The notes under the pieces: generated by a model
What the model was told of the DNA's origin: nothing
Database searches by the model: none
Seen by the model: the letters and a program-made list of their open reading frames with translations, nothing else
Shown here: positions 13,190 through 64,000 of the stretch, piece after piece
Layout: each line of letters starts with the position of its first letter
Position numbering within the stretch: position 1 is the first letter of the stretch
Source of the DNA: an uncultured Alphaproteobacteria bacterium
GTDB lineage: Bacteria; Pseudomonadota; Alphaproteobacteria; Rhizobiales; Rhizobiaceae
Assembly (NCBI GenBank): GCA_963699855.1
Contig: CAVOVL010000006.1
Span: 68,606 to 132,605 of the forward strand
Reading direction: 5' to 3'
DNA: 64,000 bases
Position numbers and translations under genes: made by a program

Positions 13190-13198
13190 GGCTACCCC

Positions 13199-14097: not shown

Positions 14098-14098
14098 T

Positions 14099-22122: not shown

Positions 22123-22132
22123 GGGGAAACAC

Positions 22133-22895: not shown

Positions 22896-22899
22896 CGGT

Positions 22900-23196: not shown

Positions 23197-23215
23197 CGCT
23201 ACTCCTTGCATTCGT

Positions 23216-29105: not shown

Positions 29106-29971
29106 AGTGATTTCCGGAAGAAGCGACCGGTAATGCCGGTGGGCATCAGGCGCAGGAGAATGATTGCCGTCACGAGCAGCGCAACTTCGCCGATCGTCGG
29201 ACCGGTAAGGAACGTCACGATGCCGTTGATGCCGCCAAGGAGGATCGAGCCTGCCGCGGTGCCGGCAAGTATCGAGGCGCCGCCCGAGATGACCGTGATG
29301 AAGGCCTTGGCGATATAGGTTGCGCCCATGGTGGGCAGTACGCCGGTGACCGGCGCCAGGAGGCCGCCGGCAAGGCCGCTAACTGCCGCGCCGAGGCCGA
29401 ACGTGATCATGTAGATGCGGCTGGTCGAGACGCCGAGCGAGGAAGCCATCTGCGCGTTCTGCATGGTGCCGCGCGCCAGGAGCCCCAGTTTCGTCAGCTT
29501 GAGCGTTGCGTAGACCGCAAGCAGGAGCAGCGCGGTCACGAAGATCAGAAACAGGTCGTAGCCCGAAATCGTGTAGCCGCCGATCGGGAGTGCCCCGATC
29601 GGCGGCGAGATCGTGGTGGTGGTTTGCGCGCCGAAGATCGACGTCACGATACCGATGAGAAGGAGGGAGAGCCCCCAGGTGGCCAACAGCGTGTCGACCA
29701 TGCGGCCATACAGCCAGCGGATCAGCAGCCTTTCGACGATGACACCGATGATTCCCACGACCAGCGGCGCGAGAATCAGCATGGCGATCCAGATGTTGAC
29801 CCCGTTGTTGGTCGCGACGACGACCGTATAGCCGCCGAGCATCAGGAACTCGCCATGCGCGAGGTTGATCACCCGCATCATGCCGAAGATGATCGCGAGC
29901 CCGAGGCTTATCAGCGCCAGGTTCGCGATGCCGTAGATCAGCTGCAGACCGATCGCGATGACCTGGTCCAA
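29102..29971 (-). CDS. LivH/UrtB-like ABC transporter permease
   Basis: Intact 289 aa, hydrophobic, LivH-like (MDQVIAIGLQLIYGIANLALISLGLAIIFG...). Confidence 0.8.
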   Translation of the reverse strand: MDQVIAIGLQLIYGIANLALISLGLAIIFGMMRVINLAHGEFLMLGGYTVVVATNNGVNIWIAMLILAPLVVGIIGVIVERLLIRWLYGRMVDTLLATWGLSLLLIGIVTSIFGAQTTTTISPPIGALPIGGYTISGYDLFLIFVTALLLLAVYATLKLTKLGLLARGTMQNAQMASSLGVSTSRIYMITFGLGAAVSGLAGGLLAPVTGVLPTMGATYIAKAFITVISGGASILAGTAAGSILLGGINGIVTFLTGPTIGEVALLVTAIILLRLMPTGITGRFFRKSL

Positions 29972-30008
29972 TGGGCTCTCCCGTATTGTGTTCCGGCGAG
30001 TGCCGGCG

Positions 30009-31257
30009 TTACTTGATGCCTGCCGCCTCGAGTCCGTTCTCGAAGAAGAAGACGGACTGGTTCGGATTGGCGACGAGGTCGCAGACGAGCTGGGTGTCCG
30101 AGGGCGGCTGCGCTTCGTAGGTCTCGACGATCTGGAAAACTTGGTCTTTCAGCTCGCCCAGAACGACGTTCTGGATGCAGTGATTGGTCTTCGGATCCAC
30201 GGTTATCACGCCCGACGGTCCATCGTAGCTCAGCGGGGTCCGTAGCGCTTCGGCGACCGCATTGCGCTCGATCGAACCGGCCTTCTTCACCGCCTCTGCC
30301 CACAGCATCGCGCCTTCATAGGAACGTGTCGAAAGCTCGTTCATGACGGGGCGCTTGTCGCCCAGCTTGGCCGTCAGCTTTTCGAGGAATGCCTTGTTAG
30401 CCGGACGGTCGACTGCCTCGAAATAGGAGTAGGCAGCAAGCAGGCCGTTGCCTTCCTCGGCGGAGATCAATGTCTGCTCGTTGCCGACGCCGAAGGTTGT
30501 CGAGGCGATCGGGATGCTCTTGTTCATGCCGGCCGCGGCATACTGCTTGTAGAACGACACGTGTGCGCCGCCTACCAGAGCCGAGATCACCATGTCGGGC
30601 TTTGCAGCCTGGATTTTCTGTGATGGTCGGTCCGAAGTTGGTGACGTCGAGCGGGAAGAATTCAACCGCAACCGTTTCGCCGCCATTGTCCTTGACGAAA
30701 CGCTGCATCCACTGTGCCGTGATCTGGCCGTAATTGTAGTCGGCTGCGACGATGTAGACCTTCTTGCCCCATTTGTTCATCGCATAGGGAACAACCTTGG
30801 CGACGGTCTGGGCGGGCGTGGAGCCGGTATTGAAGTTGTTGTAGTCGCACACGCCGCCTTCATACTGCGTATTGTAGAAATAGAGCGTGTTGTAGCGGGC
30901 CAGCGTCGGGCGGATCGCCTCGCGGCTGGCCGATGTGATGCCGCCATGCACCGTCGCGGCCTTTTCGCCGGCTGCCGCCTCGGTGGCGAACTGGGTATAG
31001 AGCTGGATGTTCGACTGTGCGTCGTACATCTTCAGCTCGACTTCGCTGCCGAGCAGGCCGCCCGCGGCGTTGATATCCTCGATTGCAAGCTTGGTCGCCT
31101 CGGCCATGGGCGTGCCGTAGATGTCGAGGCCGCCGGAAAGGTCGAGAATCGATGCGAAGATGATCTTGTCCGCGGCATGCGAGCGGCGGATGAGTGCGGG
31201 CATTGCTAGCGTGAAGGCGGTGGTGCCGACGAGGAAATTTCGACGCGAGATGGACAT
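30009..31257 (-). pseudogene. Liv-family (UrtA/FmdD/AmiC-like amide/urea-type) periplasmic substrate-binding protein with Tat signal, one apparent frameshift near 30620
   Basis: N-terminus MSISRRNFLVGTTAFTLAMPALIRRSHAADK in ORF 30397-31257. The C-terminal half lies in ORF 30009-30686. Confidence 0.7.
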
Positions 31258-31315
31258 TGCAGGCTCTCCTGTCTTGAGTTCAGGCTGGCGCGTGAAGGCG
31301 TGCTTGGCCGGTGCG

Positions 31316-32946
31316 TCAGTCCTCTTTGGCGGGCTTCGACTTGCCCGTTTTCCTTGCGGGGCGAGCCCCGTTTCCGCGCCGGTCCAGCTGGGCCGTCAGC
31401 CCGCGAACGCCGTCGCCGATATTCATTCCGACTTCCTCGCCAAGCCGCTGGACGGCAGGCAATTGCAGCGCCATTGACAACACGCCGTCCACCAACTGGT
31501 TGACCGTGCTTCCCTCGCCGCCGCCCTCGCCATTGGAGGAATGGCCGTTGAGGCCATTGATCTGGTTGATGCGGATGCTTTCGATCTTTTCCGCCGGCTT
31601 CATGATGCGCTCGACAACTTCTGGCAGCGCACGCAGGCGCGCCTCGTCCAGCTTCATCGACATCAATTCCGGTGTCTGCGCGTTTTCCGCCGATATGACA
31701 CGCGGCGCGGCCTTCGGCTTCGGCCAGCAGCCTGTCGCGGGCGGCATGGGCCCGCTCCAGCGTCGCCTTCGCTTCCGCCTCGGCCATTGAAATGAGCGTG
31801 CCGACCTCGGAGCGCACACGCGTGTCGTCGACTTCGGCCTGCTCGGCGGCGCGCACAAGGGCAAGCGCCTTGTCGCGCTCCGCTGCCGCCATTTCACGCG
31901 TGGTGCGGACCTGTTCCTCGGCTTCGACTTCCTTGACCTTGGCCCCGATCGCGGCGGCTTCCGCCTTCGCTTCCTCGACCTTCTTCGCGGCAAGCGTCAC
32001 GACATTTTGCGAACGGGCAAGAGCCGTCGATAGCTCGGCTGCGAGGGTCTGCCGGCGAAGTTCGAGATCCTTCTCAATTTCGGTGAGGCGCGTCTGGCGT
32101 TCCCGTGCAATGCGCGCGGTTTCGCGCCGCTTTTCCGATTCGGCCTGTTCCTCGGCGGTGTCCGCAACACTGCGCGAGCGGGCAATCTCGATCTCGCGCT
32201 GCTGGGCGATCATCGCCTCTTCCTCTTCGCGCGCGATGGTCAGCTTGCGCTTGGTCGCATCTAGCTGGCTTTGGCGTACCGAAACCTCGGCGTCGGCCTC
32301 GATGGCTGCGCGCTCCTTCTTGTTGACAGTAATGATCTCCGCGAGGCGGCGCATGCCGAGGGCGTTGAACGCGTTGTTTTCGTCGAGCGCGCTGAAGGGC
32401 GTCTGGTCGATGCGGGTGAGCGACACCGATTCCAGCATCAGCCCGTTCTGCGCGAGGTTATCCTTGAGGACTGCCGAGACTTCTCCCGCGTAACCCGCAC
32501 GATTGTCCTGCAGTTCGTCCATCGTGTAGCGCGCCGCGACCGACAGCATGGCATCGACCAGCTTTCCTTCGAGCGTTTCGGCGAGTTCGGCGGCACGGAA
32601 AGTCTTTCCGGCAAGCGCCTGCGCGGCGGTAGCGACACCTTGTACGGTCGCATGGACGCGCACGTAGAACTCCGCGCCGACATCGACACGCAGGCGGTCC
32701 TTGGTGATGATCGACTTGCGCGCCGAGCCGCTCGATTTCGAGCTTCGTCGTGCGCATGTTGACTTCAGACACCTTGTGCAGGAATGGCAGCGCAATGCAG
32801 CCTCCGTCGAGCACGACCTTTTGCCCACCCGCACCTGTCCGCACCACGCTGATCTCGCGCGTCGCCTTGCGATAGTATCGGCTGAGAAAGAGGATGATGA
32901 GGATTGCCGCGACAAGCAGGACTACGAGACTGACAAACCACGTCAT
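31316..32946 (-). pseudogene. flotillin / SPFH (band 7) family protein (YqiK-like), at least 2 apparent frameshifts
   Basis: N-terminal TM + SPFH start MTWFVSLVVLLVAAILIILFLSRYYRKATREISVVRTGAGGQKVV in ORF 32458-32946. A long coiled-coil region lies in ORF 31206-32915. The C-terminus (ARVISAENAQTPELMSMKLDEARLRALPEV...) lies in ORF 31316-31993. Confidence 0.7.
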
Positions 32947-33162: not shown

Positions 33163-33747
33163 CTAACGAAGCCCGTCCTTGCCTTCCGCAGCGTCGTGCG
33201 TCAGCCCGCCGACGCGGGCCAACGGACGGCCACTGTCAGTCACGGCGACGGCAACCATGATTTCCCCTGCGCGCGGGGCATCATTGAGGCGCACTTCAAT
33301 GCCGTCGAAATGGCTGCGCACATAGGCCGCGTCCTTGTGGCCAAGCGGAACGTCCAGCACCTGGCCAGGTCCGCCCATCTTCTTCGAGGATGGCACGAGC
33401 GCCGCGCCTTTTTCGACGGCCTTTCGCAGGGGTGCGCCGAGCTTTGGATGAAGGATCGCGGCTGCGTGTTCCAGTTCGCCGGCTTCCCCGACCATGGCGG
33501 CCTTGCCATAGCTTTGCGCCTGTGACGGCTCGATGCCCAGCGCCTCCACGCAGCGCTTGCCAAGCAGGCCGCCAAGTTCCTCGCCGATGTCGATCAGCGG
33601 CGTCAGGTCATCTTCGAAGCGCCCGGCAAACGGGTTGGCGATCACGGCGATTGCGACCGCCTTGCGCGTCGGATTTTCGAGAACTTGGCCTGCCTCGCGC
33701 CGCGTCTCCTCGACCCACACGGCCAGTTTGCGAATATCGGCGCTCAT
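33163..33747 (-). CDS. amino acid synthesis family protein (DUF1185 / PF06684), copy 2
   Basis: MSADIRKLAVWVEETRREAGQVLENPTRKAVAIAVIANPFAGRFEDD..., from the internal ATG 33747 of ORF 33163-34035. Paralogous to the upstream gene. Confidence 0.65.
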   Translation of the reverse strand: MSADIRKLAVWVEETRREAGQVLENPTRKAVAIAVIANPFAGRFEDDLTPLIDIGEELGGLLGKRCVEALGIEPSQAQSYGKAAMVGEAGELEHAAAILHPKLGAPLRKAVEKGAALVPSSKKMGGPGQVLDVPLGHKDAAYVRSHFDGIEVRLNDAPRAGEIMVAVAVTDSGRPLARVGGLTHDAAEGKDGLR

Positions 33748-34328
33748 CTCAATCCGTCCTCTCCGGCTATATCCTTCGCGGCAAGTCCTCCGGCGCGGTC
33801 GTGAATGCGTGGGCCTGTCGTCATGACCAGCACCAGCGCCATTTCGTCGGCGCGCGGCGAATCGTTCAGCCCGACTTCCATCGAGTCGAAATGGCTGCGC
33901 ACGTATGAAGCATTGATGTGCGTTACCGGTACGTCGAGCCGGGTGCCGACCGTTCCCACCTTCTTGGTGGAAGGAACGATCGCCTTTGCTCCACCCAGCA
34001 CTTCGCGCATCGCATAGCCTCCGGGCGCATGCCAAAGCGCTCCGTGTTCCAGTTCGCCCGCCGAACCGATGATCGCGCCCTTGCCATAGCCCTCCACGAC
34101 GGACGGATCGCCGCCCAGCAGCGCCACAAGCCGGCGCGCCATTTCGAGGCCGAGCGGCTTCAGGTCTTCCATGAAAGGCTGGATGTTTTCGACGTAACGG
34201 CCTGCGAATGGATTTCGGATCACCGCGATGATGGCGGCCCGGCGCAACGGCTTTTGCGCCCTCGGCCCGCCTTCGTGGTGGATTTCCTCCAGTGCGGTCG
34301 CGATCTTCCGGATCTCGACTTGCGACAT
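33744..34328 (-). CDS. amino acid synthesis family protein (DUF1185 / PF06684), copy 1
   Basis: MSQVEIRKIATALEEIHHEGGPRAQKPLRRAAIIAVIRNPFAGRYVENIQPF.... The stop overlaps the start of copy 2 (ATGA), suggesting translational coupling. Confidence 0.65.
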   Translation of the reverse strand: MSQVEIRKIATALEEIHHEGGPRAQKPLRRAAIIAVIRNPFAGRYVENIQPFMEDLKPLGLEMARRLVALLGGDPSVVEGYGKGAIIGSAGELEHGALWHAPGGYAMREVLGGAKAIVPSTKKVGTVGTRLDVPVTHINASYVRSHFDSMEVGLNDSPRADEMALVLVMTTGPRIHDRAGGLAAKDIAGEDGLR

Positions 34329-40448: not shown

Positions 40449-41696
40449 ATGGCGCATGAACCGGCAGACCCAAGCGGTGGCGGCCCGACCAGGTTGGTGA
40501 TCCGCAACATCGGAATGCTGTTGTCGGGTCGTCTGGAGGAGCCGATCCTCGACGCGGATTGCCTTGTCGCCGACAATGGCAAGATCACCGCATGGGGCAA
40601 GGAAAGGGATCTCGAAACTGACGGCGCCACGACGCTGATCGACGCGAACGGCACGACGCTGTGCCCCGGCCTTATCGACAGCCATGTGCACCCCGTGGTG
40701 GGCGACTACACGCCACGCCAGCAGCAATTGAACTGGATCGACTCCACCCTGCATGGCGGCGTTACGACGATGATTTCCGCCGGCGAGGTGCACATGCCGG
40801 GGCGTCCGCGCGACGTGGTCGGCCTCAAGGCGATGTCGATCGCGACGCAGCGCTTCTACCAGAATTTTCGCCCGTCCGGGGTCAAGGTTCATGCCGGAGC
40901 GCCGGTTATCGAGCACGGCATGGTCGAGGACGACTTCAAGGAACTGGCCGCTGCCGGCGTGAAGCTGCTTGGCGAAGTGGGCCTTGGCAGCGTCAAGGAC
41001 GGCAAGACCGCAAAGCAGATGGTGGGTTGGGCCCGCAAATATGGAATTCAAAGCACGATCCACACCGGAGGTCCTTCAATTCCCGGCTCCGGGCTGATCG
41101 ACGCCGACATGGTGCTGGAAACGGGGACGGACGTCATCGGACACGTCAATGGCGGGCATTCGGCATTGCCTGACGACCAGATCATCTGCTTGTGCGAGCG
41201 CTGCGGAGCCGGGCTTGAGATCGTCCACAACGGCAATGAACGCGCCGCGCTGCTGACGCTCAACACGGCGCGCGAGTTGAAGCAGCTTGACCGGATCATC
41301 CTTGGTACCGACGGCCCGGCCGGCTCGGGCGTCCAGCCGCTCGGCATCCTGCGGATGATCGCGATGCTATCGAGCCTTGGAAATGTCCCGGCGGAAATCG
41401 CGTTCTGCTTTGGCACCGGCAACACGACGCGCCAGCGCAAGCTTGACACGGGCATCATCGAAAAAGGCATGTGCGCCGATTTCGTATTCCTGGACCAGGC
41501 GCAACATTCGCCGGGAAAGACCATGCTGGAATCGGTAGGGCAGGGCAACTTGCCGGGCGTCGGCATGACCGTCATCGACGGCGTCGTGCGCAGCGAGCGC
41601 AGCCGCAACACGCCACCCGCCGGACGCATTCCCGATCGTGGTGCCGGTAAGGCACTGATAAACATCACCCTGCCAGGATGTCGCTGCTCAGTATGA
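40449..41696 (+). CDS. metal-dependent amidohydrolase (enamidase-like / cyclic amidohydrolase family)
   Basis: Intact 415 aa with the HxH motif GLIDSHVHP. Amidohydrolase-fold family. The enamidase-like assignment is an inference from gene context. Confidence 0.6.
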   Translation: MAHEPADPSGGGPTRLVIRNIGMLLSGRLEEPILDADCLVADNGKITAWGKERDLETDGATTLIDANGTTLCPGLIDSHVHPVVGDYTPRQQQLNWIDSTLHGGVTTMISAGEVHMPGRPRDVVGLKAMSIATQRFYQNFRPSGVKVHAGAPVIEHGMVEDDFKELAAAGVKLLGEVGLGSVKDGKTAKQMVGWARKYGIQSTIHTGGPSIPGSGLIDADMVLETGTDVIGHVNGGHSALPDDQIICLCERCGAGLEIVHNGNERAALLTLNTARELKQLDRIILGTDGPAGSGVQPLGILRMIAMLSSLGNVPAEIAFCFGTGNTTRQRKLDTGIIEKGMCADFVFLDQAQHSPGKTMLESVGQGNLPGVGMTVIDGVVRSERSRNTPPAGRIPDRGAGKALINITLPGCRCSV

Positions 41697-42299
41697 GTTC
41701 GATGCCGGCCGCCCGCATCATTTCCAGTGCCGCCGGTCCGGTTGTCTGCGGATCGACGGCCGCCGATGCATCGGTGATGACGAGCGTTTTGAAGCCGAGG
41801 GCATGCGCGTCCATCGCAAGGCCGCTGACGCAATAATCGGTCGCGATGCCCGGTCACGAAAATCCGCTCGATGTTTCTTTCGCGCGCATAGCCTGCCAGC
41901 CCGGTCATGGTCTGGCCGTCGACCATTCGGAACGCCGAATAGCTGTCGACATGCGGCAGATATCCCTTGCGGATGACCAGTTGCGCGTGGGGAATGTCGA
42001 GGTCGGGGTGAAATTCGGCGCCTGGCGTTCCCTGTACAACATGATCGGGCCACAGCACTTGCGTGCCATAGGGCATTTCGACGGTGTCGAAAGGCTGCTT
42101 TCTGTCATGCGACGATGCAAAGGAAACATGCCCGCGCGGATGCCAGTCCTGCGTCAGCACGACATTTTCGAAACGCCGCGGCCACCTGGTTGATGACCGG
42201 CACGATCTCATGCCCGCTGGCAGTCGCGAGCGCCCCGCCAATGCAGAAATCGTTCTGTACATCGACCACGACAAGAAGGTCGTTCGGGCCAGGCGTCAT
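41660..42299 (-). pseudogene. pncA: nicotinamidase/pyrazinamidase (PncA, isochorismatase family), at least 2 apparent frameshifts
   Basis: N-terminus MTPGPNDLLVVVDVQNDFCIGGALATASGHEIVPVINQ in ORF 42105-42305. Middle FENVVLTQDWHPRGHVSFASSH... lies in the frame of ORF 41048-42274. After IERIFVTG there is a one-base insertion (accgGgcatc). The C-terminus IATDYCVSGLAMDAHALGFKTLVITDASAAVDP...ELILSSDILAG lies in a third frame. Confidence 0.7.
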
Positions 42300-53366: not shown

Positions 53367-53572
53367 CTTGCACCCCTTTGCGGCCCCTAGGCCAGCCCCT
53401 GCGGATGGTGAACACATCGGAAGTTGAGCGCATCGCGCAGTTGAAATCAAGCAGGCCATCTGTCATTATTGATTGAACGGCCATTCAATAACGGCTTTTT
53501 CACCAGTTTGCGGGTCCGGGCCGTTGTAAGCCGGCAGCCGTCCGCCTGTCCAGTCGGAATCGGGGAGATCGC

Positions 53573-54968
53573 ATGAACGCCGAAGCACGCACGCGCCCGA
53601 TTGTTGCCGGAAGGCAAGACCGCTTGCCGCTGATCGCGCCCTGGTCCTACGCCGGTACCATCGGTACGGTCGCCAAGGAAGCGATCGTCGCGGGCGACGG
53701 CGTCTATGTCTGGGATGAGCATGGCAGGCGGCTGATCGACGGGCCGGCGGGCATGTGGTGCACCAATGCCGGTCACCGCAACGCCATGCTTGCCGACGCG
53801 ATGCGCGAGCAGGCGATGGCGCTTTCCTACAATACGCCCTGGTACACCTCGAACACGATTTCCGCCGACCTTGCCGCGCGGCTGGCGGAACATGCGCCCG
53901 GCGATCTCGATCATGTGTTTTTCACCACCGGCGGATCGACCGCCGTCGAGACGGCGCTGCGTTTCGCGCAGTTCTACAACAATGTCCGCGGACGCCGGGA
54001 GAAGAAGAAGTTCATCTGCCGCGAAGGCGGCTACCATGGAAGCACCTTCCTCAGCGCTTCGCTGAATGGCAGGCCGCGCACGCGCGAATGGATGGACCAA
54101 GCCGAAGACCATGTCATTCGCCTGTCGAGCCCAGATCCTTTCCGCCGGCCGTCAAGCATGAGCATCTCGGCGTTTACCGACCATCTCGTCGACGAGTTCG
54201 AGGCAGCGGTCGAAGAGCATGGCGCGGACACGATCGCGGCATTTGTCGGAGAACCGGTGATGGCTTCGGGCGGCGTTATCGTGCCGCCGCCGGGCTATCT
54301 GGAGCGGATTCGCGCGCTGTGCGAGCGCCACGATATTCTGTTCATCGCCGACGAGGTTGTGACCGCATTCGGCCGTCTGGGACACGTCTTTGCGTCCGAG
54401 AGAGGTGTTCGGCATCGTTCCCGACATGATCACCTTCGCAAAGGGCGTCACTTCCGGCTATTTCCCGCTGGGCGGCGTCATGATTTCACGCCGGCTGATG
54501 GAGGAACTGCGCGCGTCCAACCATCCTGAGGCCATGTTCGGTCATGGCTTCACCTATACCAGCCATCCGATCGGCTGTGCCGTCGCACACCGCAATCTCG
54601 ACATCCTCGAAGGCGGGCTGGCAGAGCATGCACGCGCGGTTGCGCCGTACTTCCTCGAAAGGCTCGAAACCCTTTCCGACTTGCCGCTGGTGGGGGAGGT
54701 GAGGGGGATCGGCCTGATGGCCTGCGTGGAATGCGTGGCCGACAAGGAGGTCAACAATCCGATCGCGCTCGACACCGATGTCGGCGTGCGCATCGACCGC
54801 CATACCCAGGCGCTCGGCCTGCTGGTGCGGCCCATCATCCACATGTGCGTGATGTCGCCGCCACTGATCATCGGCGAGGAGCAGATCGACGACATGGTGG
54901 CTATCCTGCGCGAAGGGATTTCGCGGACGCAGGACGATCTTCGCGCCGAAGGTATCTGGAACGGCTAG
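53573..54968 (+). pseudogene. class III (omega) aminotransferase, PLP-dependent, one apparent frameshift near 54400
   Basis: N-terminal part in ORF 53573-54529 (...YHGSTFLSASL..., DEVVTAFGRLG). The C-terminal part, containing the lysine-bearing region ...ITFAKGVTSGYFPLGGV..., lies in ORF 54390-54968. Confidence 0.75.
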
Positions 54969-56171
54969 GCGGTTCCGGCACTCGCCAGTTCGCGGTTTGC
55001 GGCGGTCAGATCCGTCGGCTCTTCTTCCAGCCGCGTGACCGGCAGGATCGCCCGGATATGGTCGTGATGCGACCGCAAGCCGTATTCGAGATCCGACAGG
55101 TAGAAGCCCGGGAAGAACTTCGACGCCATCGATTCGTTCGACCAGATCGTAAGCTGCACGTCCTCTTCCGTGGTTTCGCGATCGATGCGCATGGCAAGAT
55201 AACGCGCCAGCCGCTGCTCGCGCGTTTCCTGGCGGTAGCGGTATGTCGCGCCGCGCAGGATCGTCTTGCCGACCGAGAGCGGAAACTCCTGGTAGAACTG
55301 CATGGTCTCCGGCGTCACGGCGATCACCGTGTTCGGGAACAAGCCGTAGTAGATCCAGGCGCGCCGCAATTCCTTCGGCAAGTGCGCGGGTGGCGTTGTC
55401 AGCTTGACATAGTGGCGCACGCTCCACCGGCGGCCGCCCGTTTCCGTCACGTCCGCGAAGGAACGGCAGACCCCGCCGACAAACGGTTCGTCGAAATAGG
55501 TGCGGCCGTAAAGATCCTGCAAGGCGGGATGCGCCAGCGCCACATGGTAGCCTTCGTTGTCGACGTCGCGCACGGACTTCCAGTTGACCGGCGAAATCTG
55601 CGACCAACTGCGCCCGGACGGGATCATGTCGGGCATCTTGTAGTGCGCGATTTCCGCGGCAAAGGGCTGCATCAGCTCGGCGACCGAAGGCTGCGGCCCC
55701 GGAAGGAAGCGGACGAAGACCAGGCCGTTCCAGATTTCCATTTCCACAGGCTTCAGGCCGAACTTCTCCCGGTCGAGGCGCGGGAAGGTTTCAGGCCGCG
55801 CCGCGCCGCGCAACTTGCCGTCAAGCTGGTAGACCCAGCCGTGGAACGGGCAAACGATGGCGCCTTTGCAAACTCCGCTCTTGGGCAGAGACGACGCGCG
55901 AACCGCGATGGCGGCAAATGTTCAGGAATGCACGCACTTCGCCATCGTCGCCGCGGATGACGAGAACGCGTTCGCCGACGATGTCGAGCGTAACGAATGC
56001 GCCGTGCTCGGTGAGATCGCTGACATGGCAAACAAGCTGCCAGTGCCGGCGGAACAACTCTTCCTTTTCCAGTTCGAGCAGGGTTTCGCTATGGTAGCAC
56101 CATGCGGGCAGGCCGCGACGGTCCCAATTGGCAGGGATCGATATGTCCCGGTTCGAAAGCGGTGATTGCAT
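54965..56171 (-). pseudogene. Rieske [2Fe-2S] non-haem iron oxygenase alpha subunit (GbcA/Stc2/CntA-like N-demethylase candidate), one apparent frameshift near 55840
   Basis: N-terminus MQSPLSNRD... with the Rieske motif CRHRGSRV in ORF 55821-56294. The catalytic domain lies in ORF 54965-55813. RBS GGAGAGGAAAGGG before ATG 56171. Confidence 0.7.
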
Positions 56172-56578
56172 CGCGGCAGGCCCTTTCCTCTCCTCGAAAC
56201 TTGCTGAACGTTCATTCAATAGTACGACAGTTGCCGCGATTTGGGAAGGATGTAGACGCCGCTTTGCAGGGGTAAAGCGGAGGGGGCGCCGCAAAGAAGG
56301 CGCAACGCGGGCGAGTTAGAACAAGCAGGCAAGCCGTTCCAGCGGGGATTGGCAGTCACGTGAAAAGTGCTGGGCGCTGTTGGCGAAAGTTGCTTGCCCC
56401 ACGCCGTTTGCGCTATCGGGCAACCGCTCCACGAAAGCTGGCGGCCTCGCCCGCCGGCCTGACGGCGACTGAACCGTCCCGATTGGCCGAACTCTTGCTT
56501 GTCGTGAACATGCGGGCCGATTTCGCCCCCGCGCGATGCCATTGCCGGCAATGTGCCCAAAAAACAGGCTGAGATTGA

Positions 56579-58324
56579 ATGTCCGTAAACCCGAGAGCCA
56601 GATCGTTTCAAGCATGGCGGGCAATGTCGCCCGTCGAGGCTGTCGAAACCGCCTACGCCACGATCGCCTTGCATGGCGACGATGCAATTTTCATAACACT
56701 GCGCGATCGTGAAGATGCGCTCATGGCTGCGCGCAAGCTCCAAGGGGAGGGCGCTGCGGGCAAGTCGCTTTTCGGCCTGCCTTTCGCGGTCAAGGACAAT
56801 ATCGATGTTGCCGGTATGCCGACGACGGCCGCGTGCCCGCAATTTGCCTACACGCCGGAAGTTTCGGCGCACGTGGTGGCATTGCTGGAAAAGGCCGGTG
56901 CGATCGTCATCGGCAAGACCAATCTCGACCAGTTTGCCACCGGCCTTGTCGGCGTGCGCTCGCCCTATGGCGTTCCGAAGAACACGCTGAGTCCGGACTT
57001 GGTGCCAGGCGGCTCCAGTTCCGGATCGGCAGTTGCCGTGGGTGCCGGTATCGCAGCGTTTTCGCTCGGCACTGACACGGCAGGCTCGGGGCGCGTGCCG
57101 GCAGCGCTGAACGGAATTGCCGGCCTGAAACCCAGCCTTGGCCTGCTTTCGGCAACGGGCGTGGTTCCAGCCTGCCGCACGCTCGACACCATATCTGTTT
57201 TCGCCTCGAACGCCGCCGATGCCGCAGAAGTCGCGGCAGCAGCTTCCGGTTTCGACGCCGCCGATTTCATGTCCCGTAGATTGCCGCCAGCGGGCATTGC
57301 AGCCGTGCCGCCAGTGTTCCGTATCGGTGTTCCTCGCAAGGTCGACCGGCAGTTCTTTGGAGATGCCATCGCCGAAAATGCATATGAGGCGGATCTGGAA
57401 CGGCTGGCCGCGTCGGGTGGCGACATCCGCGAGATCGACTTCACGCCGTTCTACGATGTGGCGCGCCTCCTGTACGAGGGTCCATGGGTGGCGGAGCGCT
57501 ATCATGCCGTGCGAGGCATCATCGAACAAAACCCGGATGCAATTCACCCGGTCACGCGCGCGATCATTTCCGGCGCATCGAAGTTCAACGCGGTAGATGC
57601 ATTCGACGCAATGTACCGGCTGGCCGCGCTGCGCCGTGCCGTCGAGCCGGTTTTGAACTCGATAGACGTGCTGGCGGTGCCGTCGATCCCGACCGTCTAT
57701 ACTGTCGCCGAAGTTCTGGCCGATCCGGTGCGGCTAAATTCGAACCTCGGGACATACACAAATTTCGTCAACCTGCTCGACCTTGCGGCTTTCTCGGTTC
57801 CCGCTGGCTTGCGCGAAGACGGTCTGCCGTCATCCCTTACGCTGATCGGCAAGGCCGGGTCCGACGCACTGCTCGCGGGCCTTGCAAGCCTCGTCGAAAC
57901 CGGGATCGCTACTCCCGCGACAATACCGGCCCAGGAGATACGGCTCGCGGTCGTTGGTGCGCATTTGTCGGGAATGCCGCTCAACCATGAACTCACCAGC
58001 CGAAACGCAAGTTTCATCGAAGCGACGTCAACGACGTCCGACTATCGCCTGTATGCCTTGGCGGGAACCGTGCCGCCCAAACCGGGTCTGTTGCGTGTTG
58101 AAGACGGAACCGGCGCGGAAATCGCGTTGGAAGTCTGGTCTATGTCGCGGGAAGCCTATGGCAGTTTCGTTGCCGGAATACCGGCGCCGCTGGGCATCGG
58201 CACATTGCGCCTGAAGGGCGGAGCAGCAGTCCAGGGCTTTCTCGTCGAGGCGCAAGCCATCCGTGGAGCGCAAGACATTTCGGCCTATAAGTCCTGGCGA
58301 GTCTTTGTCTCGGCATCTGCCTGA
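56579..58324 (+). CDS. atzF: allophanate hydrolase (amidase-signature domain + C-terminal allophanate hydrolase domain)
   Basis: Intact 581 aa. FAVKDNIDVAGMPTTAACP, GGSSSGSAVAVG, and a C-terminal about 120-aa domain typical of AtzF/DUR1,2-type allophanate hydrolases. Confidence 0.8.
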   Translation: MSVNPRARSFQAWRAMSPVEAVETAYATIALHGDDAIFITLRDREDALMAARKLQGEGAAGKSLFGLPFAVKDNIDVAGMPTTAACPQFAYTPEVSAHVVALLEKAGAIVIGKTNLDQFATGLVGVRSPYGVPKNTLSPDLVPGGSSSGSAVAVGAGIAAFSLGTDTAGSGRVPAALNGIAGLKPSLGLLSATGVVPACRTLDTISVFASNAADAAEVAAAASGFDAADFMSRRLPPAGIAAVPPVFRIGVPRKVDRQFFGDAIAENAYEADLERLAASGGDIREIDFTPFYDVARLLYEGPWVAERYHAVRGIIEQNPDAIHPVTRAIISGASKFNAVDAFDAMYRLAALRRAVEPVLNSIDVLAVPSIPTVYTVAEVLADPVRLNSNLGTYTNFVNLLDLAAFSVPAGLREDGLPSSLTLIGKAGSDALLAGLASLVETGIATPATIPAQEIRLAVVGAHLSGMPLNHELTSRNASFIEATSTTSDYRLYALAGTVPPKPGLLRVEDGTGAEIALEVWSMSREAYGSFVAGIPAPLGIGTLRLKGGAAVQGFLVEAQAIRGAQDISAYKSWRVFVSASA

Positions 58325-58959
58325 AGCATTCCGGAGACGTGCTGCCAAGCATCTTCCACGCGCCCGATATGGGCAAGCATGGCCGATTGGGCAACGGTTC
58401 GCTCACCGCGCAGTATCGCTTCGACGATCATGCCGTGCTCGCAATGCGATGATGCTATGCGCCCCATCGCGGCAAATTGCGCCCGCCGGAACGCCTGCAG
58501 GCGCAGACGCGTGTTGGTCGTGATCTCAGCCAGATAGGCATTCTTCGTACCCTCGTAGATGGCCGAATGAAAAGCCTCGTTGGCAATGGCGTAGCCTTCC
58601 GCGTCGCCGGCGCGCACCATCGCGCCCATCCGCTCATGCATCTGTTCCAGGCGGCTGCGCTCGGCCGGGCTCATCTTCACCGCGCTCAGTCCGGCGCACA
58701 GCATTTCCAGATGCGCCATCACTGCGAACATTCCCACTAGCATTTCCGGATCGGGCTTGCTGACGGTAGTCTTTCTATGGGCGCGATGCTCGACCAGACC
58801 AAGTGTCGCCAGCTTTCGCAGCGCCTCACGTACCGGCGTGCGCGAGACGGAAAACTCTGCGGCGAGTTGTGTCTCGTCCAGGACGCTTCCCGGTTCTATC
58901 CGGCGGGTTACGATCCGGCGCGCCAGTTCATGGCGTATGGCTTCAGCGGAGGTTAGCAT
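58285..58959 (-). CDS. GntR family transcriptional regulator (FadR/FCD C-terminal domain)
   Basis: N-terminal wHTH ...ETQLAAEFSVSRTPVREALRKLATLGLV. Intact 224 aa. The 3' end overlaps atzF by about 40 bp (convergent). Confidence 0.75.
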   Translation of the reverse strand: MLTSAEAIRHELARRIVTRRIEPGSVLDETQLAAEFSVSRTPVREALRKLATLGLVEHRAHRKTTVSKPDPEMLVGMFAVMAHLEMLCAGLSAVKMSPAERSRLEQMHERMGAMVRAGDAEGYAIANEAFHSAIYEGTKNAYLAEITTNTRLRLQAFRRAQFAAMGRIASSHCEHGMIVEAILRGERTVAQSAMLAHIGRVEDAWQHVSGMLQADAETKTRQDL

Positions 58960-58981
58960 CAGGTTTCAATAGCAAGGGCGC

Positions 58982-59392
58982 CTATGGCGCGCCAGCGTCT
59001 GGCGCCTCGATGATGCTCACATGTGCGGCCACCACCTTCCAGCCGGCCTCCATGCGCACCCAGGTCTGCATCTGCCGGCCCACCTTTCCCGGTGTATTGT
59101 CGCGGTGAAACAGCGTCGATGCCGTAGCGAAATCGGAACCGAAAGTGGTGATCACGGTCCTGGACAAATCCCGCGCCAACCCCGCCAATGGCCGCGCCTT
59201 TCGAAAGGCGAGGATCTCGCCGATCCCGTAAAGATTCTCGCCGATGCCGTATCGCACTACGCGCTCGTCCTGCCAGAACAATTCGTCGAGAACGGCAATA
59301 TCGTTTGCGACCAGCGCCTTTTCGTAGCGCTCGAACACGGCACATACCTCGGCATGAACAACCGGATCGTTGACGACCATGTCAGCCTTCAC
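58982..59392 (-). CDS. NTF2-like/SnoaL-like small protein (DUF3225/DUF4440-like; AtzH-like candidate)
   Basis: 136-aa ORF, MKADMVVNDPVVHAEVCAVFERYEKALVANDIAVLDELFWQDERVVRYG.... NTF2-like fold inferred. Sits between atzE-like and atzF. Confidence 0.5.
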   Translation of the reverse strand: MKADMVVNDPVVHAEVCAVFERYEKALVANDIAVLDELFWQDERVVRYGIGENLYGIGEILAFRKARPLAGLARDLSRTVITTFGSDFATASTLFHRDNTPGKVGRQMQTWVRMEAGWKVVAAHVSIIEAPDAGAP

Positions 59393-60161
59393 CGCGTTGC
59401 AGCATCCGTTCGCGCAATGCTTTCAGGAACGGAATACTTTCGTACTGGTCCTGCTGCACGTATTCCCACGCGACCCCGCGTGGGCGCGGCGCGGTGTTTC
59501 CGGTGACGATCAGTTCTTCTTCTGTTGCAATGAAATCCAGCGGCGAGTCGTGCTTCATCATGAACACGCGGGAATTGTCGACGATTTGCGAAGAGTGGAC
59601 TGTCGTCGCGATGGGGGTTCCATCGGTGATGATGCCGAGTTCACGGAATATGCCGGTTTCAAGGTCGGCAAAGCCCGCGCCCTTGCCGGTGCGGCCACTC
59701 TCGCGGCTCACCGCGACCGAGCCGACAACGCAAAAATCGAGCGGCTCGACTTCCTCGAACTCGATCCGTTCGCCATGCGTCATGTATCCCTCCGATGTTG
59801 CCGCCAGTTCAAAGGAGATGCCGTTTGCCTTCAGCCGCTCCGGGTCGATGCGCAGATACGGAAAGTCCTTCGTGAGGTAGGGCACGGGCGCATAGAGCAC
59901 TTTGCCTTCGTAAAGCGCGCGGAGGCGTAACGGAATTTGCGGCGGATCGGGATTGCACTTCACCGTGCGCGCGCGCTTCCACGCCTTGGTCTGCGCAAGA
60001 CGCCAGGCAGCCATGTCGGCGCCGATGAAGTTGGGAATGTGGCTCCAGACCGGCCCCAGCGCCATGCCGCCATTTTCCAGCGCACCCCAGACCGCATCGC
60101 GGACATTGTCCTTGTCGTTGTTTCGCCCCGCCCAGCGGCCCTTGGGTTCCATGTCATGCAT
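59382..60161 (-). CDS. 5-formyltetrahydrofolate cyclo-ligase-like (5-FCL family) domain protein, encoded in-frame downstream of the AtzE-like amidase C-terminus with no intervening stop
   Basis: C-terminal about 260 aa of ORF 59382-60980: ...LYAPVPYLTKDFPYLRIDPERL...GRTGKGAGFADLETGIFRELG.... Possible starts MHDMEPKG at about 60161 or 60152. Confidence 0.45.
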   Translation of the reverse strand: MHDMEPKGRWAGRNNDKDNVRDAVWGALENGGMALGPVWSHIPNFIGADMAAWRLAQTKAWKRARTVKCNPDPPQIPLRLRALYEGKVLYAPVPYLTKDFPYLRIDPERLKANGISFELAATSEGYMTHGERIEFEEVEPLDFCVVGSVAVSRESGRTGKGAGFADLETGIFRELGIITDGTPIATTVHSSQIVDNSRVFMMKHDSPLDFIATEEELIVTGNTAPRPRGVAWEYVQQDQYESIPFLKALRERMLQRGEG

Positions 60162-60190
60162 CCTTTGCGATCGGAGCGCGAACCACGCCG

Positions 60191-61557
60191 GCTGCTCAAG
60201 CTGATGGGCGATGCGAAGGGCGATGTCCTCGCGCCATGGGGCTGCGATGATCTGGACGCCGATCGGCAATTGCTCGCCTTCGGTCCAGACCGGAACGCTG
60301 ACCACCGGAAGTCCGATGAACGAAACAGGCTGAGTGAAGAGACCAAGGTTGGGCCGCACCGGCATTTCCACGCCGTCGATCGTCATCAGCCTTTGGCCGA
60401 TACGGGGCGCGCGGCAAGGCGTTGCCGGCGCGATCAGGGCGTCAACATTCTTGAAAATATCGAGCATCTGCGCGCGAAAGGCGCGGCGCAGTTTCTGTGC
60501 CTTCGCCACCCACGCCCCGGGGACCATGGCGCCGGCGATCAGCCGGTCGCGTACGTCCGGGTCGAAATCGGCATGGCGCGAACGCAGGCGTTCCAAGTGC
60601 AGCGATGCACCCTCGGACATGGTGATGAGATAGGCTGCCCCGCGCGCGGCCTTCGCGTCGATTGCGACCGTGCCGTACGCATCGAGCGCCGCCGCAATGC
60701 GGTCGACCGCATCGAACGCCTCCGCATGGCCGCCGGTCGAGAAATAGCCGCCGGCTCTCGCGATCCGTAGTCCGGCGATGCCGGTCTTCAAATGCGGCGT
60801 TACTGGCTCGAATGGCTCCTGCGAGCATGTCGGGTCGGCCTCGTCCACGCCGGTCATCGCGTCGAGGGAAAGTGCGAGGTCTTCCGTGCTGCGTGCAAAC
60901 GGGCCGAGATGATCGAGGCTGTCGACAAATGGAAACGTGCCGGTTCGGGGCAGCCGTCCATAGGTCGGTTTAGAGTCCAAAAATTCCGCAAAGCGAGGAA
61001 GGCACCCGGATAGACCCGTTGGTGTCGGACCCCAGCGCCAGTGGGACCATCCCCGCGCCTACGGCCGTTCCGCATCCGCCGGAGGAGCCGCCGGACATGT
61101 GATGTGTGGAGTGCGGGTTTCGCGACGGCCCGTAATGTATGTTATCGCCCGTGAAATCATAGGCATACTCGCCCATGTTCAACGCGCCTGTGAGGATTGC
61201 TCCTGCTCTCTCCATTCGGGCGACGAGCGTTGCGTCCGCCGATGCGGGGCTGTTGTCGCGGTTGATTTTCGAGCCGGCAAGAGTGACGAGGCCTTCAATG
61301 TCGAAAAGGTTCTTCGCCGCGAAGGGCACGCCGGCCAGCGGGCCGGGGTCTTTGCCAGCGGCAACCAGGGCATCCACTTCGGCGGCCCTCGCCGTCGCGG
61401 CGCGTTCCGCCGTGACCGCCGTGAATGCGTTGAGCCTTGGGTCAATCCTGGCGATCCGCTCAAGGGTCTGCAATGTCACATCGGATGCGCTGAACTTGCG
61501 GCCTCGAACGCCTGCTGCTCGAATCTCAGCCGCTGTGAAGGATGCCAGACCGGTCAT
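60191..61557 (-). pseudogene. atzE: amidase-signature amidase, AtzE (1-carboxybiuret hydrolase)-like, about 457 aa, one apparent frameshift near 60975
   Basis: N-terminus [28 protein letters not shown]...[14 protein letters not shown]...SLCGIFGL in ORF 60970-61749 (ATG 61557). The C-terminal 263 aa are the first part of ORF 59382-60980. Confidence 0.6.
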
Positions 61558-61742
61558 GGATGGTAGACCGGCGCCTGTTCGGCCTCGTCTTCGAGATCGA
61601 CACCCAGCACATCCTGCGCGATACGGTGGGCTGCGGAGAGGTGAGCGGCAACCCCTGGCCTGTATTCGGCGGGTATTTTGAGATCCACGAATGGAGCCAT
61701 CGCATCGATCAATTGTTCTGGATCGAAAGGCTCGCTGCTCAT
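61554..61742 (-). CDS. atzG: small AtzG-like protein (DUF4089, GatC-like partner of AtzE), 62 aa
   Basis: [62 protein letters not shown] from the internal ATG 61742 of ORF 61554-61886. Directly upstream of, and overlapping, the amidase start. Confidence 0.5.
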
Positions 61743-62417
61743 TTGGCATCCCCCGCCAATGCTGCCTTCAAGGCGGAAAGCGCCGCCGCCCAACCGACGA
61801 TACCGCCCTGCGCCGTGATCATTCTGATCGTATACGCCTTGAACTCCGGGAAATAGCTCTCCGTGGCGTCTGTGACCAGCAGGCATTCATAGCCGCGGTC
61901 ATTGGCCTCGCGCATCGATGTCTGCGACGCAGACTTCCGTCGTGACACCGGCAAAGACCAGGTGGGTGATGCCGGCGGATTGCAATTTCTCGTGCAGTCC
62001 GGTGGCAAAGAACATGCCCTTGCCGGGCTTGTCCACGACCATCTCGCCAGGCAGTGGCGCAAGGTCGGCGACGATCTGGTTTCCCGGTTCGCCCGCGACG
62101 AGGAGCCTGCCCATTGGACCCTCTTCGCCGATGCGCGGAGATGCATTGCCGCGCGCGATCTTGGATGGCGGACAATCAGACAGGTCCGGTCGGTGTGCCT
62201 CACGGGTGTGGATGACCGGCCAATCCCGTGTCCTGAAAAGTGACAGAAGCTCGCCCACCACGGGCACGATCGCCGTCAGGCGCGAAACGTCGTTGCCGAG
62301 CGCCGCGCCGAAGCCGCCCGGTTCGACGAAGTCGCGCTGCATGTCGATAACGACCAGCGCCGTGGCATCTTCGGGCATCGTGAACGGGTAGGGTTCGGCA
62401 GCTACCGTGATCATCAA
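61739..62417 (-). pseudogene. isochorismatase-family cysteine hydrolase (BiuH/RutB-like biuret hydrolase candidate), copy 1, one apparent frameshift near 62200
   Basis: N-terminus [30 protein letters not shown]...[14 protein letters not shown] in ORF 61899-62417. The C-terminus ...[20 protein letters not shown]... lies in ORF 61739-62203. Confidence 0.65.
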
Positions 62418-62557
62418 TGTCCCGCCATGTGTTTGCCGATGGTGTTGCGGTCCGCCTCCGCTACCGGTGCGACATAGGTGATGCTGCCGCCAGACATGAC
62501 AGCGACCCGGTCGGACAGTTCAAGGATCTCGTCCAGATCCTCCGATATCAGCAGCAC
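62414..62557 (-). pseudogene. remnant: C-terminal about 47 aa of a CUT2/BMP-type sugar ABC transporter ATP-binding protein
   Basis: [48 protein letters not shown]-stop. No upstream ATPase body. The frame joins the isochorismatase copy 2 sequence at ...ECLLLEDCCGAT. Confidence 0.45.
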
Positions 62558-63188
62558 CGCCGCGGATTGTGCTGGAAGGTCTGCGCGTCGCGCCGCAGCA
62601 ATCCTCCAGCAACAGGCACTCGAAGCCGCGGTCGTTTGCCTCGCGCATGGTGGTGTGGACGCAGACATCGGTGGTGATGCCGGCCAGGACGAGGTTGCGC
62701 ACGCCGAGTGTATGCAGGAGCATTTCAAGATCGGTGGCGCAGAACGATCCCTTGCCCGGTTTGTCGATCACCGGTTCGCCGGGGAGGGGGAGAGTTCCGG
62801 AATGATTTCCCAGCCCGGTTCGCCGCGCACGAGGATTTGTCCGCACGGCCCCGTATCGCCAATTCCCGGCGCCGATCTGCTGCGAACGCCAGCGTTTGTT
62901 GGCAGGCAGGTCCGAAAGGTCGGGCCTGTGTCCCTCGCGGGTATGGATGATTTGGAACCCGAGGCCCCGCATCGCCGCCAGCACGGATCTTGTCGGCGCA
63001 ATCGGCGCGCGGGTCAGCGATATGTCGTAACCCATGCTGTCGACATAGCCGCCCTTGCCGCAGAAATCCGTCTGCATGTCGATGATGACGAGCGCGGTGT
63101 TGCGTGCCCGCAGATCGCCGTCGAACGGCCAGGCATAGGGTTCCGCATTCACCGGACCGGCTCTTGTCTCCCGTGCGAAAGCGTTCAT
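62520..63188 (-). pseudogene. isochorismatase-family cysteine hydrolase (BiuH-like), copy 2, internal compensating frameshifts and a disrupted C-terminus
   Basis: MNAFARETRAGPVNAEPYAWPFDGDLRARNTALVIIDMQTDF...[16 protein letters not shown]...[27 protein letters not shown]. The middle segment [26 protein letters not shown] lies in another frame (ORF 62768-63001). Confidence 0.6.
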
Positions 63189-63196
63189 CGAGGCTC

Positions 63197-64000
63197 CTAC
63201 TTGACGATTGAGAGTTCGCCCGGCGCCTCGCGCGCGGAGGATGACGAACGTGCCGAGGTGATCATGATGAAAAGCGTGAGGATGTAGGGGGCGGCGTTGA
63301 AGAAGTAGTAGCCCTGGCTGATACCGACCGACTGGAGCGCAGGCCCGATCGCCCCCGCCGCGCCGAAAAGCAGCGCGGCGAGAATGCAGCGCAATGGATT
63401 CCAGCGCGCGAAGATGACAAGTGCAACGGCCATCAAGCCCTGGCCGGAGGAAAGGCCTTCATTCCAGCTTCCCGGGTACGAGAGCGAGAGGAACGCGCCG
63501 CCGACGCCGGCAAGGAAGCCGCCCATGGCCGTCGCGATAACGCGGACCATGATCGGATTGACGCCCATGGCCCGAGCGGCGGGTTCGGAGTCTCCGGTCA
63601 TGCGAACGACAAGGCCGGCCCGCGTGTTGGCGAAGGCCCACCACATGATGCCTGCTGCAAGAATGCCGGCGAAGAAGAGTGGATTGATCTCCAGCGCCTG
63701 GCGCAGTGCCGGCGTGGAAGCCCATTCGCCGAGCGGCAGCGATCGCAGCCGGGGAGCGGAAGGCTGGATGTATGGTTTTCCGAAAAAGAATGCGAGGCCG
63801 ACGCCGAGCGACATCATGGCTAGACCGACTGCGATGTCGTTGACGCGCGGCAGGCTGCAAATGACGCCATGCATCAGCCCTAGCAGCACGCCGGAAAACC
63901 CGGCGGCAAGCACGCCAAGCCAGGGCGAGCCGGTTTCGTAGGAAACGCCGTAGGCCACCATGGCGCCAAGTACGAGATTGCCTTCAAGGCCGAGATTGAT
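63197..64000 (-). CDS. ABC transporter permease (sugar/nucleoside BMP-type), 3' portion; gene continues beyond the window end
   Basis: Hydrophobic C-terminal 254 aa (ORF 63197-63961), ...GVNPIMVRVIATAMGGFLAGVGGAFLS.... Confidence 0.65.
   Translation of the reverse strand: MNLGLEGNLVLGAMVAYGVSYETGSPWLGVLAAGFSGVLLGLMHGVICSLPRVNDIAVGLAMMSLGVGLAFFFGKPYIQPSAPRLRSLPLGEWASTPALRQALEINPLFFAGILAAGIMWWAFANTRAGLVVRMTGDSEPAARAMGVNPIMVRVIATAMGGFLAGVGGAFLSLSYPGSWNEGLSSGQGLMAVALVIFARWNPLRCILAALLFGAAGAIGPALQSVGISQGYYFFNAAPYILTLFIMITSARSSSSAREAPGELSIVK

Follow-up and report, generated by a model that had tools for sequence, protein, structure and literature searches.

Positions 56579-63188 of a 64,000-nucleotide (nt) stretch of contig CAVOVL010000006.1 (positions 68,606-132,605; assembly GCA_963699855.1), hereafter termed the window, hold a gene cluster that most probably represents one copy of an operon conserved among marine and soil Hyphomicrobiales for the use of triuret and biuret as nitrogen sources. 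In gene content the cluster is predicted to encode a complete triuret/biuret route, all proposed steps of which are modeled on characterized homologs. A preliminary description had recognized seven gene families in this region, in the order of two isochorismatase-family hydrolases, AtzG, AtzE, an NTF2-like AtzH candidate, a GntR regulator and a convergent AtzF, and these families and their order were confirmed by an open reading frame (ORF) listing and by profile searches (Pfam, NCBIfam). It overlooked several frame breaks, a truncation, a PF01812 gene, the remnant of a transporter ATPase gene and the continuation of the operon into a permease gene. The novelty is also smaller than claimed there, because the component modules have already been described, namely, trtA-biuH-atzF operons with GntR and an ATP-binding cassette (ABC) transporter (PMC7948467) and atzGEH sets without atzD (PMC6219798).

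Organization of the operon and its intact relatives

A genome scan with AtzF recovered a Salaquimonas sp. metagenome-assembled genome (MAG) contig (L001) on which all genes of the operon are intact. This contig is about 85% identical to the window at the nucleotide level (AtzF is 89% identical) and is collinear with window positions 56484-62587 and 62587-64000. It carries AtzF on the plus strand and, on the minus strand, GntR, AtzH, the PF01812 protein, AtzE (465 amino acids, aa), AtzG, isochorismatase 1 (224 aa), an ABC ATPase (516 aa), isochorismatase 2 (236 aa) and a permease. Indels and a deletion in the window were mapped by base-level alignment to this reference, and the proteins termed “frame-corrected” below are window sequences from which single-base indels relative to L001 have been removed. 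In Oricola (L081) and Hoeflea (L083), the order is Bmp, permease, permease, CN_hydrolase, BiuH, ATPase, TrtA, AtzG, AtzE, PF01812, AtzH and GntR, again with AtzF convergent, and a Labrys MAG (L032) has the common gene order as well. A nitrilase-family amidase encoded before BiuH is present in only some of the intact relatives.

In the window, the last gene of the operon (58285..58959, minus strand) encodes an intact, 224-aa GntR/FCD-family regulator with PF00392 and PF07729 domains, and its position is identical in the Salaquimonas, Oricola and Hoeflea loci. Beyond the other end of the cluster, a BMP-type ABC transporter permease gene (63197..64000, minus strand) continues past the window edge; its product is 99.3% identical to the L001 permease at the aa level, and its orthologs in Oricola and Hoeflea carry PF02653. 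Between the two isochorismatase-family genes there is a 3' remnant, some 55-60 codons long, of a BMP-type ABC transporter ATPase gene (62414..62587, minus strand), recognized by NCBIfam matches to ABC ATPase C-termini and by alignment to the 516-aa ATPase of L001. The atzG gene overlaps trtA as well as atzE, and its stop codon overlaps the atzE start codon (ATGA).

Two simpler arrangements dominate among the 80 AtzF-anchored loci that were surveyed for gene context. In Rhizobium, Mesorhizobium and Agrobacterium, the order is permease, BiuH, optionally AtzD, ATPase, TrtA, cupin and AtzF, and the BiuH-ATPase-TrtA core was found in about 20 loci of these genera. In Bradyrhizobium, AtzF is followed by GntR, AtzH and AtzE. 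The window operon looks like a union of the Rhizobium-type and Bradyrhizobium-type modules plus the PF01812 gene, and a search of the searchable literature library found no paper on this combined form or on a PF01812 gene in such a context. A megablast search of a plasmid collection returned only short, 77-82% identical matches to the isochorismatase genes, and hence no close relative.

The trtA-biuH-atzF operons of Herbaspirillum sp. (PMC7948467) resemble the window cluster in their TrtA and BiuH paralogs with an ABC ATPase gene between them, in their BMP-type ABC transporter, GntR and AtzF genes, and in the production of 1-carboxybiuret by TrtA; a supplementary legend of that study also names trtB and atzD as neighboring genes in the strains examined there. 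The window cluster has no atzD. The Rhizobium beringeri pRlX1 locus (L086) has a BiuH-ATPase-TrtA core order identical to that of the window, but it carries atzD between biuH and the ATPase gene and a cupin gene after trtA, where the window instead has atzG-atzE-PF01812-atzH. The window cluster lacks this cupin gene, and its copy of the operon is damaged, as described below.

The atzG-atzE-atzH part is closest to the atzDGEHF operon of Pseudomonas sp. ADP (Esquirol et al. 2018, PMC6219798), with which the window shares the atzG-atzE-atzH order and AtzF. The window AtzE is about 55% identical (481 bits) and the window AtzH 56% identical to the ADP proteins, with Tyr22 and Arg46 of AtzH kept. 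The two systems differ in that the window has TrtA instead of AtzD, encodes a BiuH, which strain ADP lacks, has the PF01812 gene inserted between atzE and atzH, and carries atzF in convergent rather than co-directional orientation. Clusters of atzGEH are also known from beta-proteobacteria, where they are accompanied by genes for allophanate hydrolase and ABC transporters, and from many Proteobacteria that have them without atzD or atzF (PMC6219798). The window shares with them the trio, the allophanate hydrolase and ABC transporter genes and the lack of atzD. The allophanate hydrolase gene is there located upstream on the same strand, and the text of that paper makes no mention of TrtA/BiuH-type cysteine hydrolases or of a PF01812 gene.

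TrtA and BiuH, two different isochorismatase-family hydrolases

Both isochorismatase-family proteins had been taken for BiuH paralogs, a view that does not survive comparison with characterized enzymes (here and below, structure comparisons are sequence matches to PDB entries unless stated otherwise). The copy next to atzG (61739..62414, minus strand; 224 aa after correction of one insertion) is assigned by sequence as an ortholog of TrtA, the triuret hydrolase. Its frame-corrected product matches TrtA (6XIX/6XJE) with 309 bits, vs 197 bits for RhdBiuH and 181-185 bits for Rhizobium leguminosarum BiuH, and it falls below the cut-off of the NCBIfam BiuH equivalog model (239.6 vs 370 bits). In an ungapped alignment to 6XIX (residues 1-220), F35, N41, E160, C162, Q202 and I205 are all identical; F35, N41, E160, Q202 and I205 are the residues that separate TrtA from BiuH, and Cys162 is catalytic (Tassoulas et al., PMC7948467). 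In the assembled sequence, the reading frame is interrupted by an extra nucleotide at 61925, yielding ORFs of 172 and 154 aa.

The second copy (~62587..63188, minus strand) has two indels and has lost its last 36 codons, and by the same kind of comparison it is biuH, encoding biuret hydrolase. It matches R. leguminosarum BiuH (6AZO) with 348 bits vs 199 bits for TrtA, has Y/Y/D variants at the positions of TrtA F35/N41/E160, and contains the motifs GGYVDSMGYD and TTDVCV. Against the NCBIfam BiuH model NF050097, the frame-corrected protein scores 365.8 bits, just under the cut-off of 370, with the match ending at profile position 189 of 221, while the intact ortholog of L001 passes with 417.6 bits. 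The window protein ends at ...CCGAT, and the C-terminal loop bearing the substrate-positioning Gln and Val (KMQGGV) is gone together with the 36 C-terminal codons that are kept in L001.

AtzE, AtzG, AtzH and AtzF

The amidase gene (60154..61557, minus strand), described earlier as a single ORF of about 457 aa, is split by a missing nucleotide at 60195 and an extra one at 60972 and encodes 467 aa once both frameshifts are corrected; two in-frame 3-nt insertions relative to L001 are present besides. As assembled, it is read as ORFs of 259 and 532 aa, the latter running into the PF01812 domain. The proposal that this enzyme is AtzE-like, rather than a GatA or a malonamidase, held up well. The frame-corrected protein scores 697.6 bits against the equivalog model NF006631 (cut-off 461) vs 273 bits against the GatA model, and among PDB sequences it matches Pseudomonas ADP AtzE (6C62) with 481 bits, GatA with 246 bits and malonamidase with 120 bits. 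Its motifs AAKNLFD, GGSSGG and GSDTNGSIR, which hold the Lys/cis-Ser/Ser triad, are identical or nearly identical to those of 6C62. We therefore classify the amidase, by its sequence, as a member of the AtzE (1-carboxybiuret hydrolase) family.

The adjoining 62-aa product (61554..61742, minus strand), proposed to be a DUF4089/AtzG-like protein, is indeed matched by the Pfam AtzG-like family PF13318 (52.7 bits, cut-off 24) and would form the small partner subunit of AtzE. It has no match among PDB sequences, so that its membership rests on Pfam. It is the operon context with TrtA and AtzF that points to 1-carboxybiuret as the putative substrate of the AtzE-AtzG pair.

The NTF2-fold protein (58982..59392, minus strand; 136 aa, intact) was likewise correctly placed in the AtzH-like DUF3225 family (PF11533, 188.6 bits), which is the family of AtzH, HpxZ and TrtB, and its alignment to AtzH (6BJT) shows Tyr22, Arg46 and Arg73 to be conserved. 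TrtB, a carboxybiuret decarboxylase, is a relative of AtzH and HpxZ within this one family (PMC12625717 supplement), and sequence therefore does not fix which of the three subtypes the protein represents. Identity to the window protein is 60-76% for family members whose genes adjoin atzE and 55-59% for three homologs found with trtA and a PF01812 gene but no atzE; at least two others without a nearby atzE reach 62-64%.

The three homologs found with trtA and a PF01812 gene come from loci L039, L056 and L085, where trtA is followed by the PF01812 gene and the AtzH-like gene without atzE. These more divergent AtzH-like proteins, 55-59% identical to the window protein, are 45-50% identical to AtzH of strain ADP and may be of the TrtB subtype.

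The convergent atzF gene (56579..58324, plus strand; 581 aa) is intact and shares 40 nt at its 3' end with gntR. Its product matches TIGR02713 with 760.7 bits (cut-off 511), together with PF01425 and the AH_C domain PF21986 (157 bits), as expected from the earlier identification. The gene has no indel against L001, with a ratio of nonsynonymous to synonymous substitution rates (dN/dS) of 0.11, and by these matches it encodes a full allophanate hydrolase.

The AtzG-AtzE-AtzH trio has homologs in another ureide pathway, the oxalurate branch encoded by hpxWXYZ in Klebsiella and other Enterobacteriaceae, which has a homologous small subunit, amidase and NTF2-like protein. The window trio might be an HpxX-HpxY-HpxZ-type system for oxalurate, or for another ureide of purine catabolism, that merely lies beside an independent TrtA/BiuH/AtzF module. 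The NTF2-like protein passes the NCBIfam HpxZ equivalog model (195 bits, cut-off 135) and finds its best PDB match in 2RCD (162 bits), ahead of AtzH (139 bits), and atzGEH-like trios are common in genomes without atzD and atzF (PMC6219798). We nevertheless regard an Hpx-type function as quite unlikely. The trio is located between trtA and gntR/atzF and is translationally coupled within the trtA operon through the overlaps of atzG with trtA and atzE, and the arrangement with TrtA, BiuH and AtzF is kept in Salaquimonas, Oricola, Hoeflea and Labrys. The cluster contains neither the gamma-glutamyltransferase-like HpxW gene nor allantoin genes, the amidase passes the AtzE-family model, and the TrtA product 1-carboxybiuret is the established substrate of AtzEG (PMC7948467, PMC6219798).

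A proposed triuret/biuret route without AtzD

The preliminary description reported no cyanuric acid hydrolase (AtzD/TrzD) in the window, and a tblastn search with R. beringeri AtzD gave no match at E<=1e-3 across the 64 kb; the same query was positive in six other loci (L003, L016, L021, L030, L064 and L078). Nor was AtzD detected in the stretches of about 20 kb around the syntenic operons of Salaquimonas, Oricola and Hoeflea. TrtA acts on triuret and AtzD on cyanuric acid, but both yield 1-carboxybiuret, which has a half-life of about 20 min before it decarboxylates on its own to biuret (PMC7948467). AtzEG in turn converts 1-carboxybiuret to 1,3-dicarboxyurea, AtzH converts this product to allophanate, and AtzF mineralizes allophanate (PMC6219798). 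Because TrtA supplies 1-carboxybiuret, no AtzD is needed and the pathway has no gap. The earlier suggestion of a carboxybiuret-like substrate in place of s-triazines thus holds, with TrtA as a source of 1-carboxybiuret other than AtzD (PMC7948467).

It is conceivable that the cluster instead supplies the later steps of cyanuric acid (s-triazine) degradation and that the AtzD/TrzD gene is located elsewhere in the genome, since in operon cores of the Rhizobium/Agrobacterium type (L086, L016, L021 and L030) atzD does occur, inserted after biuH and ahead of the ATPase gene. We consider this very improbable in view of the absence of AtzD from the 64-kb window and from the roughly 20 kb around each of the intact operons of Salaquimonas, Oricola and Hoeflea, and of a TrtA that renders AtzD unnecessary.

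In the triuret/biuret route that we favor, the ABC transporter would import the substrate, and TrtA, a Cys-Asp-Lys hydrolase, would remove a terminal amide from triuret to yield 1-carboxybiuret, replacing the ring-opening step of AtzD. AtzE with AtzG would then deamidate 1-carboxybiuret to 1,3-dicarboxyurea, which AtzH would decarboxylate to allophanate. In parallel, BiuH would convert the biuret arising from spontaneous decarboxylation of 1-carboxybiuret to allophanate. Allophanate from both branches would be hydrolyzed by AtzF to ammonia and CO2, and the GntR/FCD protein probably controls the operon.

Several observations weigh against this interpretation. The substrate assignments rest on 55-75% identity to characterized proteins. 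The HpxZ call and the best PDB match to 2RCD mean that the AtzGEH trio could act on a different ureide, and an AtzEGH branch and a BiuH branch in one operon look redundant. Finally, trtA, atzE and biuH are not translatable at full length as assembled, and the pathway may therefore not operate in this organism.

Single-base indels and a 1,479-bp deletion

Five single-base indels relative to L001 disrupt the cluster: the one in trtA and the two in atzE described above, and two in biuH, which has a missing nucleotide at 62786 and an extra one at 62868. As assembled, biuH thus undergoes two frame changes and then acquires a foreign end matching the C-terminus of an ABC ATPase. We judge it quite probable that all five indels are assembly errors. 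The dN/dS values against L001 are 0.09-0.12 for the frame-broken cluster genes and 0.08-0.15 for intact genes, and the frame-corrected cluster genes contain zero in-frame stops. Moreover, the breaks extend well beyond the cluster. Codon-usage segmentation revealed, throughout the window, numerous places where one coding segment directly adjoins another on the same strand but in a different frame, and seven genes elsewhere in the window have a frame switch within a single Pfam domain. Examples are located at 4848-5896 (plus), 12992-14100 (minus), 22133-22877 (plus), 30012-31317 (minus), 41674-42172 (minus), 53567-54965 (plus) and 54983-56162 (minus); the affected genes encode a pfkB kinase, an SDR protein, a Peripla_BP_5 binding protein, a nicotinamidase-like protein, a class-III aminotransferase, a Rieske oxygenase and an ABC permease.

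We estimate about 30 intragenic frame switches per 64 kb, or roughly one per 2 kb, so the five in the cluster are no excess. For this reason we rejected a decay specific to the cluster, which had been suggested by the presence of five indels in 2.7 kb and of none in the 3.7 kb of atzF-gntR-atzH-PF01812. The gene breaks of the window, 13 of them verified and about 30 suspected, included no case of a gene interrupted by a same-frame stop; one candidate nonsense mutation near 13193-13201 proved to be the normal stop of the pfkB kinase gene, followed by the start of the next gene. The frameshift-only pattern, together with purifying selection on the genes, makes assembly indel errors the best explanation, and the switches across the whole window point to an indel-prone assembly, a very recent genome-wide decay being less likely. 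A metagenome contig of the same species was sought as a check on the indels, and a 35-mer beside the atzE frameshift had no match; a 21-mer led to six contigs that are only 65-70% identical.

A variant of the cluster without atzG-atzE was found in another public assembly (L085; GCA_036704275.1, JBAJGS010006001.1), in which gene calling has broken up the isochorismatase, Bmp, permease, amidase and AH_C genes, each into several fragments. Frameshift-rich assemblies of such bacteria therefore exist.

The larger lesion is a 1,479-base-pair (bp) deletion at 62587 relative to L001, through which biuH lost its last 36 codons and the ATPase gene about 456. A clean junction, with small extra indels in the neighboring ATPase remnant, sets the deletion apart in kind from the single-base indels, and it is probably real. 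The junction also separates regions of different similarity to L001, which is 84.9% identical on the left (56484-62587) and 92.4% identical on the right (62587-64000), with a lower synonymous substitution rate (dS) of 0.24 in the permease gene. It may be a recombination breakpoint as well.

If the five frameshifts and the deletion were all real, the cluster would be a pseudogene relic of a triuret/biuret catabolism lost in the course of genome-wide gene decay. Three frame-broken enzyme genes, the truncation of biuH and of the ATPase gene, and a deletion junction that has the look of a real mutational event, with its small indels beside it, would all fit such a history, as would the frame breaks throughout the window, which a decaying genome would also show. 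The broken genes, however, have the same dN/dS as the intact ones. Real sets of pseudogenes normally mix nonsense and frameshift mutations, yet no in-frame stops remained here after frame correction, and none of the verified or suspected breaks was a nonsense disruption. Frameshifts alone, at about one per 2 kb, are typical of indel-prone assemblies, and L085 fragments the operon in a like manner. We therefore consider a true relic unlikely and retain the reading of an operon whose frames were probably broken by assembly errors.

A PF01812 gene between atzE and atzH

The gene between atzE and atzH (59382..60152, minus strand; alternative start at 60161) encodes an intact, 256-aa protein of the 5-formyltetrahydrofolate cyclo-ligase (5-formyl-THF cyclo-ligase, MTHFS) fold. 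An apparent fusion of AtzE to this cyclo-ligase-like protein, suggested by the 532-aa ORF, was rejected: the two are separate genes in L001, L081 and L083, where they abut or overlap by a few nucleotides, and the fused ORF results from the 1-nt deletion at 60195.

The protein matches PF01812 with 59 bits, is matched by no NCBIfam model, and has a best PDB sequence match of only E=0.5-0.6. An AlphaFold2 (AF2) model (predicted local distance difference test score, pLDDT, of 93.6) was compared with known structures by Foldseek, which returned the MTHFS enzymes 2JCB, 1YDM and 3HY6 with E values of 1e-9 to 1e-6 and target-normalized template modeling (TM) scores of 0.6-0.7. These are its only clear structural relatives, at 14-19% identity, and the window protein is about 60 residues longer. 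The model and the Pfam match place the protein in the MTHFS fold and family, while by sequence it is not recognized as a canonical MTHFS.

The family is large, with 2,346 homologs that fall into 1,845 clusters at a 50% identity level. The best 120 hits show 73-93% identity, and conservation is above that of the neighboring genes. Lys14, Arg18 and an R-x-G-x-G-x-G-x-x-D motif are nearly invariant, and they resemble the ATP-binding residues of MTHFS, a likeness supported only by a weak alignment to 1WKC. The gene adjoins trtA in every fetched locus that holds both it and triuret genes (L001, L003, L032, L039, L056 and L081-L085). Of two more distant relatives, one (L088; 36% identical) is encoded within a different Bmp-type ABC operon, and the other, which is archaeal, among housekeeping genes. 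Homologs are annotated everywhere as “5-formyltetrahydrofolate cyclo-ligase”.

One tentative reading, which we consider less likely than not, is that the protein could be an ATP-dependent enzyme for an unrecognized triuret or ureide step, e.g. one that activates or cyclizes a carbonyl of a carboxylated or formylated ureide. The position beside trtA, the high conservation, the relative in L088 and the nearly invariant residues speak for it.

Other features of the window

A second region of organic-nitrogen catabolism extends over 19607-31317. It includes an amidase that is only partial (19607-20368), covering profile positions 182-445, as well as an acetamidase/formamidase (21172-22119), an ABC transporter of the branched-chain type and a frameshifted Peripla_BP_5 amide/urea-type binding protein (30012-31317, minus strand). 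At 24961-27402 (minus strand), a LivF-like ABC transporter ATPase domain and a complete amidase-signature domain are read as one uninterrupted ORF of 814 aa, which may be either a genuine fusion or a further result of frame errors. Two tandem genes, both of which match PF06684 (the “amino acid synthesis” family) over its full length with about 240 bits, are located at 33175-34328 (minus strand) and adjoin genes whose translations, inspected by eye, resemble molybdopterin oxidoreductases.

Implications

Since the window carries a frameshift about every 2 kb, readings based on its ORFs are unreliable until the assembly has been checked. If the 1,479-bp deletion is real, the organism has lost the BiuH substrate loop and the transporter ATPase, and with them import through this transporter and the biuret branch; the route through TrtA, AtzEG, AtzH and AtzF would remain. 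The PF01812 gene is a conserved member of the operon and a concrete candidate for experiment, and if its product does prove to be catalytic in the ureide route, the published triuret pathway would be incomplete. More broadly, the operon is a hybrid, widespread in marine and soil Hyphomicrobiales, in which the deamidating AtzEGH branch and the BiuH branch are both placed behind one triuret hydrolase, and its recognition is of use for annotating the potential of these bacteria to scavenge nitrogen from impurities of urea fertilizers and from the oxidation products of uric acid.

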